Source: Candidatus Aminicenantales bacterium
Lineage (GTDB): Bacteria; Acidobacteriota; Aminicenantia; Aminicenantales; Aminicenantaceae
Direction of reading: 5' to 3'
Length of the DNA: 64,000 bases
Assembly: GCA_046760305.1 (NCBI GenBank)
Contig: JBHIDX010000003.1
Span: 2,526 to 66,525 of the forward strand
Shown here: positions 40,128 through 62,275 of the stretch, one piece after another
How the letters are laid out: every line of letters begins with the position of its first letter
Numbering within the stretch: position 1 is the first letter of the stretch
Translations under genes and position numbers: made by a program
Notes under the pieces: generated by a model
What the model saw: the letters and a program-made list of their open reading frames with translations, nothing else
Told to the model about the DNA's origin: nothing
Database searches by the model: none

Positions 40128-40384
40128 GAGGCGGCTCTCTTCCATTTTGTGTGGGTATATTTTATTGAACAAGGAATATCCGACAATGGCCTCTGTTAAT
40201 ATGAAGGCTTTCATTGTTTCCCTCTGTATGGTGCTCAATACATCTCGGCCGGCCGACTCAGTCGGCTTCCCTCGAGGGCGGTTCGGGAAGGCTAAATCTT
40301 CCAAGGTCGCTCGGGCCATTGTCGGATATTCCTTATAGAAACATTTATCGCTTTCCTACCCGCACAAAATAGAAGAGAGCCCTC
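40128..40384 (-). repeat. Structured fold-back element, copy A (ncRNA or non-autonomous mobile element)
   Basis: Outer IR 40133-40157/40357-40381 (23 of 25 matches); perfect 21-bp inner IR 40171-40191/40314-40334; core homologous to 62047-62174. Confidence 0.7.
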
Positions 40385-40545
40385 AATGGAGGCCACTGGA
40401 ATGTAAGGCTCTATTCAGAGTACAATTATCACGGAATGCGAAACACTCACACTTAACAAAGTTGAAAAGAAAGGGTAAATGTCATATTTTATCTGCTTGA
40501 AATCTTCTCTCTATGAATAACTTAAAGTAAAGAGGAGGCTGAGCA

Positions 40546-42432
40546 ATGCGGCTTGAAAAAAGAATAAGTTGCAAGGGGATGAACATCTTGTTGTTTTCCT
40601 TTCTTGTTTTTTTTACTCTTCTGGCTTCCAGCAAGTTGGCCGCGAACAGGACAGAAAAGCCAGTGCTTCACGGAAAACACTGGGTGGCTATCACCGGCAA
40701 ACCCCTGGCTGCCACTGCAGGAGCAAAAATTTTTGAGCGGGGAGGAAATGCCGTTGATGCTGCCTGCGCCATGCTGGCTGCAGTGTGCACCATGTATGAT
40801 GTCCTCAGCTGGGGAGGGGAGACCCAGGCACTGATTTACAACCCCCACACAGGAAAAGTATACGGAATAAACGGCCTGGGTGTTGCTCCTACAGGTGCAA
40901 CGCCAGAATTTTTCAAGGAAAAGGGTCTTGATTACCCGCCAGCCTACGGCCCTCTGGCCGCTGTTACACCAGGCACTCCAGGAGGATTAATGGTCATGCT
41001 GGCTGAATTCGGCACCATGAGCCTGAGTGAGGTTCTGGAACCTGCTATGGAAATGGCCAGAGGATATCCGGTAGAAAAACAGCTCGCAGAAAGCATAGAA
41101 AGACAAAAAGATTGGATAAAAAAATGGCCTTATTCCAGAAAAGTGCTCCTTCCCCATCTGGGAGAGGAACATGAAGCACCCTATCCTGGTGAAATTTTTA
41201 GCCAGCCAGAGCTTTTAGAAACCCTGCAAAAACTTGTCGAGGCTGAGCAGAAGGCGCTCGCTGAAGGGAAAAGCCGCAAAGAAGCAATATATGCTGCTTA
41301 CGACCGCTTTTACAAGGGAGATATTGCTCAGGAGTTTGTCCGCGGCTCGCGAGACCAGGGAGGTCTCATCACCCTTGAAGACCTGGCCCACTGGAAAGTG
41401 TACATAGAAGAGCCGGTGATGACGACCTACAAAGGGATTGAAGTCTACAAGTTAAACTGCTGGGTACAGGGACCTGTTCTCCTCCAGATGCTGAATATGC
41501 TGGAAGAAATCGGCCTCAAGGAAATGGGCTACAACAGCGTAAATTACATTCACACCATTTACCAGGTGATGAATCTTGCTTTTGCGGACAGGGATTTCTA
41601 CTACGGAGACCCATACTTTCCACCGCAAGAACCAATCAAGGGACTCCTTTCCAAGGGATATGCCAGGGAACGCCTGAAAAAACTAAACTGGAACCTGAAT
41701 GACCCTGATGTTAAACCCGGGAATCCGTACCCTTTTGAGGGGAGGAAAAATCCTTTCCTCCACTATCTTGAAGACTGGCCGATCGTAAATAAAGAAAAAC
41801 AAACCAGGAAGCAGAAAGAAGAAATAACCGCCTTTGAAGAAAATTTCCTGGCCGGGACGACGTCAATCCAGGCGGCCGATGAAGAAGGGTGGGTTGTCTC
41901 TGCCACTCCAAGCGGGGGATGGATCCCAGCCTGCATAGCAGGCAAAACAGGCATAGGCATGAGCCAGCGCATGCAGAGCTTTGTCCTCCACGAGGCTGAA
42001 AACCCCTTCAATGTGGTTGCTCCCGGGAAAAGACCGCGTGCCACCCTTACTCCCAGTATCGCCCTCAAGGACGGGAAGCCTTTCCTCTCTTTTGCAGTTC
42101 AGGGCGGTGATACACAGGACCAGAACCTTCTCCAGTTCTTTCTCAACATGGTTGAGTTCGGGATGAATGTCCAGCAAGCCTGCGAGGCTGCTAACTTCAC
42201 AAGTTATCAGATGAAAAGCTCATTCGGCTCCCACGAGTCAAAACCCGGAAGATTGCTGCTCAATGAAAAAATTCCAGAAAAAGTCCGAGAAAACCTGCGG
42301 CTCATGGGTTATACGCTTATTTTCAGAAGCCATACCTCAGGACCCATAAACGCCATTTTCTTTGACAGGGATCACGGAACTTTCTGGGGAGGATCGAGCA
42401 ATTACGGAGAGGATTACGGAATCGCCTGGTAG
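40546..42432 (+). CDS. ggt: Gamma-glutamyltransferase family protein, secreted
   Basis: GGNAVDAA, FYKGDIA, AFADRD, GTTS nucleophile, PGKRP and GGDTQDQ motifs. Confidence 0.92.
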   Translation: MRLEKRISCKGMNILLFSFLVFFTLLASSKLAANRTEKPVLHGKHWVAITGKPLAATAGAKIFERGGNAVDAACAMLAAVCTMYDVLSWGGETQALIYNPHTGKVYGINGLGVAPTGATPEFFKEKGLDYPPAYGPLAAVTPGTPGGLMVMLAEFGTMSLSEVLEPAMEMARGYPVEKQLAESIERQKDWIKKWPYSRKVLLPHLGEEHEAPYPGEIFSQPELLETLQKLVEAEQKALAEGKSRKEAIYAAYDRFYKGDIAQEFVRGSRDQGGLITLEDLAHWKVYIEEPVMTTYKGIEVYKLNCWVQGPVLLQMLNMLEEIGLKEMGYNSVNYIHTIYQVMNLAFADRDFYYGDPYFPPQEPIKGLLSKGYARERLKKLNWNLNDPDVKPGNPYPFEGRKNPFLHYLEDWPIVNKEKQTRKQKEEITAFEENFLAGTTSIQAADEEGWVVSATPSGGWIPACIAGKTGIGMSQRMQSFVLHEAENPFNVVAPGKRPRATLTPSIALKDGKPFLSFAVQGGDTQDQNLLQFFLNMVEFGMNVQQACEAANFTSYQMKSSFGSHESKPGRLLLNEKIPEKVRENLRLMGYTLIFRSHTSGPINAIFFDRDHGTFWGGSSNYGEDYGIAW

Positions 42433-42457
42433 CTACTTCTGGAAAGGCTCAAAACAC

Positions 42458-60433: not shown

Positions 60434-61785
60434 TTTATCCTTACTGTGAGCAGGATTCTGTTATCGGGGGAAAGGTACCTATGGGCAACTCTTATAATAT
60501 CTCCTGGAGTTACTCCAAGAAACATAGAAAGCTCTGTGGCCAGATGAGAAAGAGACCCTTTCTGCAGGTACGAATCGACGAGGAAAAGAGCTCTGCCAAG
60601 AGTTGTTGAGTATCGACTTACATAATCAGCCTTAAGCATATTTTTTGCTTTGGTGAGTTCTTTGTCTGGGATACGGGTTGTCCTTATTCTGTTAACTTCT
60701 GAATAAACTGCTTTCCTACACATCTCTGTCATGACCTCATTATTAGCCAGCACAGAGACCTTTAAAAGAGAAAAATGCTTCCATTTCTCAATACCGCCGC
60801 TGTAACTGTAAGCGAGGCGCTCTCTTGCCATCAACCTTTTATGAAGACGCGAGCTCCTCCCTCGAAGTAGAATGTACTCGATTATCTGGAGAGGATAAAA
60901 ATCATTCGAAAGAGGGGAGGGGAGTCTGTAACCAAGATGAAAACCCGGCGTAGGAGCAAGTACTTCCTCGAAGACCTGGGTTGTGGATACTTTTTTGAGT
61001 TCTTCGGGATTTTTACGAGGAGGAGGGCTCTTACCTTCAGCTAGAGTCCCAAAGTACCTCCTCACCAGCTCCTCAACCTTACTCCGGTTCACATTTCCTG
61101 CTATACAGAGCACAGCATTATTGGGGGCATAGTAAGTGGAATAAAAATCTTTGACATCTTTGAGTGTTAAATTTCGGATGTCGTTCTCTGTTCCTATTAC
61201 CGGATGACTGTAAGAAAAACCAGGCCTGGCCAGACGGTCAAATTCAGAAAGACTTTCAAAATAAGGTTCTATTTCCTTCCTGTGCTTTATTTCTTCTAGC
61301 AGAGAATCCTTTGTTCTTTCGACCTTCGATTCTGTTATCTCAAGAAAGTTCATGCGGTCAGATTCGAGCCAGAGCACAAGGGGGAGTTGGTTTGAAGGAA
61401 CTGTTTGGTAGTAAACAGTTTTTTCTTCTGAAGTTAATGCATTCAGCCTGCCTCCTATTTTGTTTATAAGGGCAACATGCTGCATCCGGGCCACGTGCTT
61501 CGAGCCCTGAAACATCAGATTTTCAAGCAGATAAGCAAGCCCTGTCTTCCCCATTTTCTCGTCTGCTGAGCCAACATTATAGGCAATTACAACTGAAACA
61601 AGAGGAAAAGAATCATCTTCTGAGATGATAACATGGAGTCCATTCTTGAGAGTGAGCTGTGAGACATGAAAAGGAAAATTATCCCCCTGAGAATGTAAGG
61701 CAGGATTAAGGAGAAAAGGGAGGAGTATTAACCAACATTTCCTTATAGGAGAGAGTTTTTTTCTTGTGGAGAAAATGTATTCCAT
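60430..61785 (-). CDS. M16B peptidase-like subunit with a degenerate zinc motif (YLLEN), exported
   Basis: LKNGLHV, YNVGSADE, GLAYLLENLMFQGS, LESDRM and YYAPNNA motifs. Confidence 0.88.
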   Translation of the reverse strand: MEYIFSTRKKLSPIRKCWLILLPFLLNPALHSQGDNFPFHVSQLTLKNGLHVIISEDDSFPLVSVVIAYNVGSADEKMGKTGLAYLLENLMFQGSKHVARMQHVALINKIGGRLNALTSEEKTVYYQTVPSNQLPLVLWLESDRMNFLEITESKVERTKDSLLEEIKHRKEIEPYFESLSEFDRLARPGFSYSHPVIGTENDIRNLTLKDVKDFYSTYYAPNNAVLCIAGNVNRSKVEELVRRYFGTLAEGKSPPPRKNPEELKKVSTTQVFEEVLAPTPGFHLGYRLPSPLSNDFYPLQIIEYILLRGRSSRLHKRLMARERLAYSYSGGIEKWKHFSLLKVSVLANNEVMTEMCRKAVYSEVNRIRTTRIPDKELTKAKNMLKADYVSRYSTTLGRALFLVDSYLQKGSLSHLATELSMFLGVTPGDIIRVAHRYLSPDNRILLTVRIK

Positions 61786-62023
61786 CGGGTGTTAAAAATA
61801 GCATAAAGAGTAAGATAAATTCAAACTCTTAATCCTCAGCAATCCTCCAGAAAGCTCTCCATAAAACAAATTTCCTGTCTTTAACAATATAACCATACTA
61901 AAAATATTGATATTCATGAATAATTCAGGCTAAAAATTTGTTTATGGTCAAAATAATCATCTTAAATTCCTTGATGATTAATATCCCCAACTCTAGATAA
62001 GAGCCCTCAGTACCAACGCCGAG

Positions 62024-62275
62024 TGATGAATCCGGGAAGGGGGAGAAGCGACATTGAGGGTTTAGCCCTGGCTCCCCGTTTGGCGAGGGAATCCGGCGAA
62101 GCCGGAGCCGAGGACTGTTTGAGCACGTGATGTAGAGCAACAGGTGGAAGGAATGGCCACTGAGAGTCAGAGGCGCCAGTAAGCGAGCGTGCGGAGTTCC
62201 GCAGGCCCGAGTCAGAGGGGGAGGCAACGGCGTTAAAAACCCGAAGCGAGCGATTCCCCCTTCCCGGATTCATTA
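62024..62275 (+). repeat. Structured fold-back element, copy B (ncRNA or non-autonomous mobile element)
   Basis: Perfect 19-bp IR ATGAATCCGGGAAGGGGGA (62026-62044/62255-62273) extending imperfectly about 65 bp inward; GC-rich internal hairpins. Confidence 0.7.

Follow-up and report, generated by a model that had tools for sequence, protein, structure and literature searches.

Two Fold-Back Elements of an Aminicenantales Genome: Probable Copies of a Non-Autonomous Repeat With a Conserved Internal Fold

Introduction

What usually defines a dispersed palindromic repeat is its ends or a short REP hairpin. Other genetic signals are read as one folded strand of DNA, precedents being the ends of IS200/IS605 elements together with PATEs, integron attC sites, the folded single-stranded attP of phages and single-strand origins; in these, structure counts for more than sequence, and they are either shorter than the elements analyzed here or single-copy, each having a known enzyme (Y1 TnpA, IntI, XerCD or the host RNA polymerase). 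Among structured RNAs of mobile elements, retron RNAs have end stems that are complementary and variable, with a conserved AGC after them, and the Rfam database holds the HEARO and IS605-orfB motifs. In this work we analyze two fold-back elements, A and B, from a Candidatus Aminicenantales genome of 2.49 Mb (139 contigs, 92.9% complete). The window, i.e., the whole stretch of DNA analyzed, is 64 kb long (G000:C3:2526-66525). A and B are probably copies of a non-autonomous, proliferating fold-back repeat, the conserved part of which is an internal strand-specific rod and not the termini.

The closest described repeats are the REP and REPIN sequences, which, according to the available passages of two papers (PMC3116915, PMC3337134), are mobilized by RAYT transposases of the Y1 HUH type, and the bacterial MITEs (miniature inverted-repeat transposable elements), of which Correia/NEMIS, ERIC and RUP are treated in the available passages of two reviews (PMC2229807, PMC3184786).

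Architecture of the Elements

The original prediction placed in the window two fold-back elements with a common core inside unrelated stems, and alignment bore out both the positions and the shared blocks it had listed. The homology of A and B is far above chance. A covariance model (R2), constructed from 25 short-form copies of other genomes with no window sequence included, matched B at 62036-62265 (plus strand, 107.5 bits, E 1e-25) and A at 40181-40322 (minus strand, 32.2 bits, E 1e-6), in the latter case by the 5' half and the stem only; the scan of the 64-kb window gave no matches other than these two. A second covariance model (R1) covers the 5' module alone.

The repeat unit, about 190-340 nt long and devoid of an open reading frame (ORF), has a 5' module (AAGCGACCTTGAAGATTTAGCC ... 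CGAGGGAA, a hairpin, then GCCGAG ... TTGAGCAC), which is separated by an apical part that varies from the 3' module (GTGCGGAGTTMCGCAGGCGCCGAGAAGG ... GGCGTTAAAAATCTGAAGGGAGCG). Of 82 module pairs, 72 were 132-152 nt apart and seven 84-88 nt. The modules pair together, and the core so formed is rod-shaped, with about six helices and purine-rich loops that are conserved; its parts are as follows:

P1: closing stem, variable
Internal loop: AGCGA, both strands
P2: AGAUUU/AAAUCU, also GGGUUU/AAACCC, AGGUUU/AAACCU and GGAUUU/AAAUCC
Bulge: GUUAA
Short helix: GCC/GGC
P3: includes tandem G.A positions
Three-way junction: GAGGGAA
P4: hairpin at the junction
P5: GCC[GAGNA]UG / CA-GGC, with a purine bulge
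Loop: UUGAG / GGAGUU
P6: apical, dispensable

P6 measures about 70 nt in B and a few nucleotides in one subfamily of genome G031, and is swapped for a nested repeat in seven loci.

Element B has the following features:

62025..62274, plus strand: element B, complete long-form member of type B, 250 nt (full-length R2 match; ends common to 8 type B copies)
62025..62045, plus strand: P1 closing stem, 5' strand, partner 62254-62274 (sequence and fold; P1 columns covary family-wide)
62046..62131, plus strand: 5' module (R1 match at 62040-62131, i.e., C3:64565-64656; alignments)
62132..62189, plus strand: P6, variable apical region, a 68-nt insertion relative to short-form copies (R2 alignment)
62190..62253, plus strand: 3' module (nhmmer 3' module match at C3:64706-64799; covarying pairing with the 5' module)
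62254..62274, plus strand: P1 closing stem, 3' strand (sequence, fold, ends common to type B copies)

The ends of B contain a perfect 19-bp stem within 62025-62045 / 62254-62274, the pairing spanning 19-21 bp. The core starts on the plus strand with AAGCGAC, and the 5' module leads from this loop through P2 (GGGTTT), GCC and the 5' strand of P3 to the GAGGGAA junction (62085-62091), continuing with the P4 hairpin (62092-62106), the 5' strand of P5 with its GAGGA bulge (62107-62117) and the TTTGAG loop. The 3' module comprises, in order, the GGAGTT loop, the 3' strand of P5 (CAGGC, 62202-62206), the 3' strand of P3, GGC (62229-62231), the GTTAA bulge, the 3' strand of P2 (AAACCC, 62237-62242) and the GAAGCGAGCGA loop. 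The region matching P6 of B is absent or minimal in short-form copies. B extends beyond the end at about 62174 that had been predicted; its 5' module is paired to a conserved 3' module lying further on, at about 62190-62253.

Element A is read from the minus strand:

40133..40382, minus strand: element A, decayed member of type A, with outer stem, inner stem, 5' module and variable hairpin, and without a 3' module
40335..40382, minus strand: outer arm, 5' side (read by eye)
40314..40334, minus strand: inner closing stem, 5' strand, 21 nt, partner 40171-40191 (sequence and fold)
40226..40318, minus strand: 5' module, AGCGAC ... TTGAGCAC (R1 match at C3:42751-42843, minus strand, 84.9 bits)
40171..40191, minus strand: inner closing stem, 3' strand (sequence)
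40133..40170, minus strand: outer arm, 3' side (…TACCCACACAAAATGGAAGAGAGCC; comparison of copies)

On this strand A forms a nested hairpin with a perfect 21-bp inner stem (40334-40314 / 40191-40171), inside which the core starts with CGAGCGACC. The position proposed for A was correct, with two amendments: a further outer stem reaches 40382/40133, and the 3' module is missing. In the R2 alignment the 3' half of A forms non-standard pairs only. A is a relic that has lost its 3' half and in which P2 and P3 can no longer form. Its 5'-side outer arm is, by eye, the reverse complement of the 3'-side arm of other type A copies, so that the arms are swapped relative to the core. The arm family of its 3' side also borders the largest subfamily in other metagenome-assembled genomes (MAGs).

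An outward-facing promoter-like site was observed in the 3' arm of A (40159-40186, minus strand; TTGTCG, 16 nt, TAAAAT; 9/12), and TAAAAT also occurs within the arms of that largest subfamily in other MAGs.

Covariation and Strand Asymmetry

The structural conservation of the core, which had been proposed from two copies, is supported by covariation. RNAalifold applied to 37 diverse copies returned 47 pairs, 35 of them with compensatory changes. Among 90 copies aligned to R2, standard pairs occupied 95.0% of the cells versus 79.7% in shuffles (0 of 500 shuffles reached the observed value), 31 of 42 pairs were changed on both sides versus 23.3 in shuffles, the covariation score was 0.422 versus 0.151, and sliding the 3' partner by 1-3 columns left 29-52% of the cells paired, all these figures leaning towards structure because the model had guided the alignment and the copies are related. 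Some copies have, by eye, A-U pairs in place of the tandem G.A.

The fold belongs to one strand. Within P2-P4, G:T was found in 54 cells and A:C in 11, while P1 is near symmetric (41 versus 28). Folded independently, the forward strand gave -132.9 with 183 G:T and 74 A:C, and the reverse strand -118.3 with 74 G:T and 120 A:C. Covariation that supports the helices and a strand-specific wobble bias, which together define the working class of structured single-stranded nucleic acid elements, are both present.

On a single chromosome, at least three subfamilies with unrelated arms of 40-60 nt surround one core. Sequence comparison indicates that the closing stems differ between subfamilies and are kept within each, the core being conserved through the stem changes.

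Copies in This Genome

R1 matched 15 places in this genome at E<=1e-5, plus fragments. With nhmmer, the 5' module profile made from A and B found 16 places, and 21 in a second round, while a profile of the 3' part of B found 29. Many copies lie at contig ends. Eight copies have the ends of B (type B) and about seven the arms of A (type A). As the ends are common within each group, the unrelated stems of A and B mark two subfamilies: the two stems are unlike each other, as had been stated, yet each recurs in the remaining copies of its subfamily in this genome, a feature in which the ends resemble those of other families of repeats.

The long type A copies on contigs C6, C44 and C21 possess a second module, GTGCGCAGTTTCGAGGCCGCCG, which is homologous to the 3' module of B and missing from A; in the C6 and C44 copies a nested palindrome splits this 3' module. 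Solo arms and derivatives with deletions are frequent.

Several observations concern the repeat content of the genome, which is unusually repeat-rich for 2.5 Mb. A palindrome, GGGGTCAGGTCTTACATTATAACATTT...AAATGTTATAATGTAAGACCTGACCCC, is nested in type A copies at C6:72850-73290, C44:4850-5300, C13:2290-2560 and C12:22575-22990, and matches the repeats bordering the RAYT gene of C61, which amounts to repeat-in-repeat nesting. At C58:10742-11330 two type B copies whose cores are identical form a tandem pair, 336 nt apart; the one upstream differs in its right end.

Distribution and Novelty

The multi-copy family that had been postulated extends well beyond the 15 R1 matches in this genome. Of 121 genomes sampled from the order, 75 had R1 matches; these belong to 40 of 51 genera, with counts per positive genome from 1 to at least 35. 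R1 matched none of 150 other genomes of the phylum. Four complete chromosomes contained 40 (G031), 49 (G032), 20 and 4 copies. In one genus the element has a 187-nt short form, for which BLAST gave at least 33-44 matches in each genome. Scanning for an exact pattern, with one genome taken for every species, detected at least 113 loci, most of them in MAGs named Candidatus Aminicenantes; among the matches listed, nhmmer gave 105 in 95 of the 113 loci, and several of the 18 loci that it missed are true distant relatives. Copies within one genome are only about 83-97% identical. On the G031 chromosome, 16 of the 40 copies were seen within about 0.42 Mb (2.18-2.60 Mb), roughly 10% of its length.

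Full-length R2 matches (E from 1e-13 to 1e-4) were also obtained in four MAGs named Omnitrophota and in one labelled Planctomycetales; a second Planctomycetales-labelled locus (L039) matched R1 only (E 0.053). What is conserved across subfamilies and two phyla is the core and not the sequence of the terminal stem. Downstream of the distant copy in L039 (about 7000-7460, minus strand) there are three tandem units of about 56 nt, each of which corresponds, in reverse complement, to the 5' stem of the element itself together with the sequence as far as TTTAGCC. Plasmid and phage collections had no match to the family; the single pattern match in a viral contig of IMG/VR was not confirmed by R2 and is hence attributed to chance.

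In agreement with the original prediction, which by eye saw no match to tRNA, tmRNA, RNase P, SRP, 6S or riboswitch consensus, Rfam 15 gave no match at gathering threshold in the whole window. The E-value mode yielded noise only, with best values of 0.29 for A, 8.2 for B and 0.17 (a long non-coding RNA model) for an Omnitrophota-labelled copy; four short-form copies gave no match. No relevant description of a structured RNA, miniature inverted-repeat or non-coding RNA was found in the Aminicenantes literature searched. The available passages of PMC11602168 name neither Aminicenantes nor Omnitrophota, its supplements, which might list such repeats, being outside their scope. The family therefore appears to be undescribed relative to Rfam 15 and the literature searched, the latter mostly at abstract level.

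Insertion Sites and Mobility

Comparison with relatives, as the original prediction had suggested, revealed orthologous sites at which the element is missing. In the spacer between the M16 peptidase gene and metK, i.e., the site of B, it is missing in eight relatives of other genera. In the genus g134, three sites are filled in G275 and empty in G186 and/or G252; at one of them the convergent genes are only 8 nt apart in the empty genome, which means that the closing stem arrived together with the core. Such filled and empty sites between relatives demonstrate mobility. One filled/empty pair has a possible 6-8-bp repeat. At one orthologous site of G248, a difference of 3.2 kb was considered as a candidate and turned out to carry an ABC transporter and a glycosyltransferase, not a transposase.

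Twenty copies of G252 define a unit of 187 nt, GAAATTCAGGTGTGGC ... GCCAYAYCTGAATTTC. About half of them sit in the loop of a carrier repeat hairpin (…CACGAGCCGAGGTTG [loop] AGATCGGCTCGCC…), which elsewhere holds an unrelated hairpin module (GCGGCAGATGCGAGGCGC…) in place of the element (carrier loci L165, L169, L171, L174, L175, L178, L179 and L181 of G252, L161 of G203 and L155 of G186). This suggests either modular exchange or loop-targeted insertion. In seven loci (L002, L026, L027, L029, L044, L051, L060), the apical region after TTGAG is replaced by a second conserved repeat of about 200 nt (AAAGCTCAGGCCAGTGGATTCCGAAAACACGC...), which occurs alone in L126 (G010), upstream of metK, and may be another structured family targeting hairpin apices. 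The joining of the 5' module after TTGAG to other sequence had been taken for a candidate autonomous form and was rejected in favor of this nested second repeat family.

In four DNA runs of one public study, contigs break at the element, and their summed depth there is 7-30 times that of the flanks, a figure which fits a repeat and is not a copy number. No contig in these runs bridges an empty site at B. One joint, from 62043 to 62244 with three letters between, fits the deletion derivatives seen elsewhere in the genome.

Neighboring Genes and Promoters

The genes and promoter-like sites around the two elements, all outside them, are the following:

60430-61785, minus strand: M16 peptidase gene, on the other side of B
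62282..62311, plus strand: promoter-like site of metK (TTTACA and TATTTT with 18 nt between them, the latter hexamer preceded by TG)
62341..63507, plus strand: metK (S-adenosylmethionine synthetase; Pfam S-AdoMet_synt N, M and C; start by alignment with relatives)
38032-40059, minus strand: Peptidase_S9 gene (Pfam)
40094..40123, minus strand: S9 peptidase gene, promoter-like site (TTGACA and GATAAT with 18 nt between them; 11/12)
40546-42432, plus strand: gamma-glutamyltranspeptidase gene

B lies between the M16 peptidase gene and metK, which is followed by ahcY, and A between the divergent S9 peptidase (minus strand) and gamma-glutamyltranspeptidase (plus strand) genes. The metK promoter-like site begins 8 nt downstream of the end of B, and the S9 peptidase promoter-like site is 10 nt downstream of the end of A. 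The promoter-like block TTGAAA...TATGTTAT, which in the window starts 8 nt after B, occupies the equivalent place in eight element-free relatives; B is inserted just upstream of the metK promoter. The element is close to promoters and so may affect the expression of neighbors such as metK. A fixed distance to the downstream gene, considered because A and B end 8-10 nt before a -35-like hexamer, was rejected, the distances being broad over 90 copies. No recognizable S-adenosylmethionine (SAM) or S-adenosylhomocysteine (SAH) riboswitch was seen in metK-ahcY (62282-63507, 63518-64000), with 0 Rfam matches at gathering threshold.

Among 118 copies, 32 lie in divergent and seven in convergent spacers, and 15 and 29 in tandem contexts in sense and antisense, respectively, the neighboring ORFs having been called by a crude longest-ORF heuristic. 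In 73 of 104 cases of this set and, by the same kind of ORF calls, in 58 of 84 among the 90 R2 matches, the gene located 5' of the copy is directed away from it.

Search for a Mobilizing Enzyme

The link to HUH/Y1 enzymes (RAYT, IS200/IS605) offered by the original prediction was not supported, since Y1_Tnp does not track the element, the Y1 genes of this genome are bordered by other repeats and the strands of the copies are interleaved. Y1_Tnp was found in 102 of 121 genomes of the order, including 12 of 12 genomes of the element-free genus g23. This genome has three RAYT-type Y1_Tnp genes (C61:2955-6278, locus L114; C101, L115; C77, L116), each flanked by its own abundant REP-like repeat family and not by the fold-back element; one of the proteins, of 303 aa, has a C-terminal part that reads by eye as a helix-turn-helix. 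Nor was adjacency to IS110, reverse transcriptase (RT) or TnpB genes observed, as no neighboring ORF recurs: clustering of the ORFs within 3 kb of 105 Aminicenantes-type copies, and of those within 3.5 kb of 12 distant copies, all called by the crude longest-ORF heuristic, revealed no recurrent one.

Discussion

The reading of A and B as copies of a non-autonomous fold-back repeat is built on many copies, presence and absence at orthologous sites, decay products, subfamilies around one core, covariation and strand asymmetry, all of which were observed. As to the mechanism, the core would act in cis as the recognition module of a trans-acting machinery reading a folded single strand, and P1 together with the outer arms at the base of the core would travel along and be free to change. 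With recognition residing within the core, its base-pairing partners could change freely, which would explain both the unrelated stems and the nesting. For the nature of the folded molecule, single-stranded or cruciform DNA is our tentative preference over an RNA payload, at a likelihood a little short of even, because spread without an RT needs a DNA route, no conserved promoter is present, the orientation is not tied to transcription and the stems are free to vary; moreover, P4 loops of 3 nt are stable in DNA as well, and so are tandem G.A positions.

A bolder form of this reading, which we consider unlikely, is a mobile element whose sole conserved component is the single-strand rod of about 170 nt and which, by means of a structure-specific enzyme or of its own viroid- or ribozyme-like catalysis, would spread without a protein of its own in two phyla. 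Such an element, in the same unlikely case, would carry whatever palindrome closes its base and would have moved at least between Acidobacteriota (Aminicenantales) and Omnitrophota.

Several points weigh against the repeat as a mobile unit read through its fold. Foremost, no mobilizing enzyme was found. Y1_Tnp is absent from G001, G005, G009, G213 and the one-contig G019, which carry 14-20 copies each (14 in G019). Across a panel that comprised 15 genomes, G032, with its 49 copies, and G019 lack IS110 (PF01548), and G031, G032, G019 and G195 lack RVT_1. RVT_1 is also missing from the genome of the window, in which TnpB (PF07282) likewise gave 0 matches. The 40 copies of G031 are strand-interleaved (e.g., seven plus and seven minus within 2.31-2.60 Mb, the replication origin not being mapped), which a lagging-strand-dependent mechanism like that of IS608 does not predict. 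None of the 20 G252 copies with defined ends revealed a consistent flanking direct repeat. Since copies within a genome are only about 83-97% identical, current activity is no more than a possibility. Finally, beside the lean of the 90-copy figures mentioned above, the covariation between the halves could partly represent concerted change of long imperfect inverted repeats. On these data, RT, IS110, TnpB (checked in this genome only) and Y1/RAYT are not required partners, and retro-mobility, IS110 mobility and Y1-dependent mobility are not supported.

The alternative that survives best, and is a real if lesser possibility, takes the core for a functional non-coding RNA payload (a ribonucleoprotein scaffold, a processed small RNA or, conceivably, a ribozyme) carried on hairpin repeats; on the same possible footing, the long P1 duplex would let RNase III free the core from read-through transcripts. 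The multi-helix fold with its three-way junction, conserved purine-rich loops and tandem G.A motifs suits RNA, as do the GNRA-like P4 loops and a single UUCG one (by eye), the strand-specific wobble bias and the conservation across two phyla; in the distant family, furthermore, about eight of 11 copies lie in sense between co-directional ORFs, by crude ORF calls. Yet no conserved promoter precedes the core, the region upstream being the variable P1 arm; tandem contexts are antisense about twice as often as sense (29 versus 15), and the 5'-side gene is divergent in the majority of copies (the 73/104 and 58/84 given above). An RNA without an RT cannot account for the spread and would need the capture of one payload by several unrelated backbones. 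Most P4 loops, besides, are of 3 nt and suit DNA at least as well, including that of GCGAAGC, which is a very stable DNA mini-hairpin.

Clearly less probable is an ordinary MITE, the halves of which would be long imperfect terminal inverted repeats bound as duplex by a DDE transposase acting in trans, with the structure as a by-product. It would agree with a small, ORF-free, intergenic and palindromic unit whose ends are kept within each subfamily, and with the possible 6-8-bp duplication at one site, but not with the lack of a consistent target duplication among the 20 G252 copies. Termini that are unrelated between subfamilies around a conserved interior are the reverse of the usual MITE pattern, while a duplicated duplex site would not be expected to have conserved arm-to-arm differences (tandem G.A, the GTTAA bulge) or the excess of G:T over A:C. 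Neither a full-length parent with matching ends nor 5' and 3' modules of the same copy 0.25-6 kb apart were detected (122 copies in the fetched loci); the only wider pairing of modules, 3,656 nt in L020, joins two separate copies.

The idea that B is a new SAM/SAH riboswitch class for metK-ahcY and A a related regulator of the S9 peptidase gene, suggested by the co-oriented position of each upstream of its gene and by the lack of a known SAM riboswitch in the window, is very improbable, and a metK riboswitch or leader was rejected: B ends 8 nt before the -35-like hexamer of metK and thus outside the likely transcript, it is missing from the matching spacer in eight relatives that keep the promoter block, copies adjoin unrelated genes in every orientation, and single chromosomes carry 40-49 of them.

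Returning to the mobile fold-back repeat, here an internal one-strand fold, rather than ends or REP hairpins, is what is conserved across two phyla, and none of the usual mobilizing enzymes accounts for the family. Should the fold be a transposition signal, it would indicate that uncultivated lineages of sediments and the subsurface have a recombinase or nuclease that reads structure and is undescribed; if it is RNA, a new abundant class of structured RNA is missing from Rfam. The family also has a practical side: it breaks MAG assemblies, many copies being at contig ends.

Comparison With Known Systems

Taken together, the family is best filed with the REP/REPIN/MITE kind, yet it is a member of none of these. 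As far as the passages cited in the Introduction describe them, REPIN and REP sequences resemble it in being dispersed, non-coding, hairpin-forming intergenic repeats, which form sequence populations within genomes, are non-autonomous and persist in lineages. By the same passages, however, a REPIN consists of two short REPs and a spacer, whereas the fold-back unit of 190-340 nt has a six-helix core, and its conserved part is the interior, not REP-like ends. Unlike the REPIN-RAYT system as presented there, none of the three RAYT genes of this genome is bordered by the fold-back element, and Y1_Tnp presence does not track it.

With bacterial MITEs, to the extent covered by the available review passages, the family shares small size, multiple copies, the lack of ORFs, terminal inverted repeats, foldability and a frequent location near promoters. 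It departs from that portrayal of MITEs in that no fixed target duplication or parent insertion sequence was found, and in that the termini differ between subfamilies around a conserved core with covariation and strand asymmetry.

In contrast to the signals read as folded single-stranded DNA, the fold-back element has no array, adjacent integrase, Y1 dependence or replichore bias (the origin not being mapped). The IS110 bridge RNA, the TnpB/IscB omega RNA (HEARO) and the retron msr-msd are comparable as structured RNAs, 150-300 nt in size, that form part of a mobile element; however, each of those adjoins its own protein gene, whereas the fold-back element has no linked ORF, and RVT_1 and IS110 are absent from copy-rich genomes tested and TnpB from the genome of the window. 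In its core the loops are conserved and the stems vary, which is the opposite of guide-bearing loops such as those of the IS110 bridge RNA.

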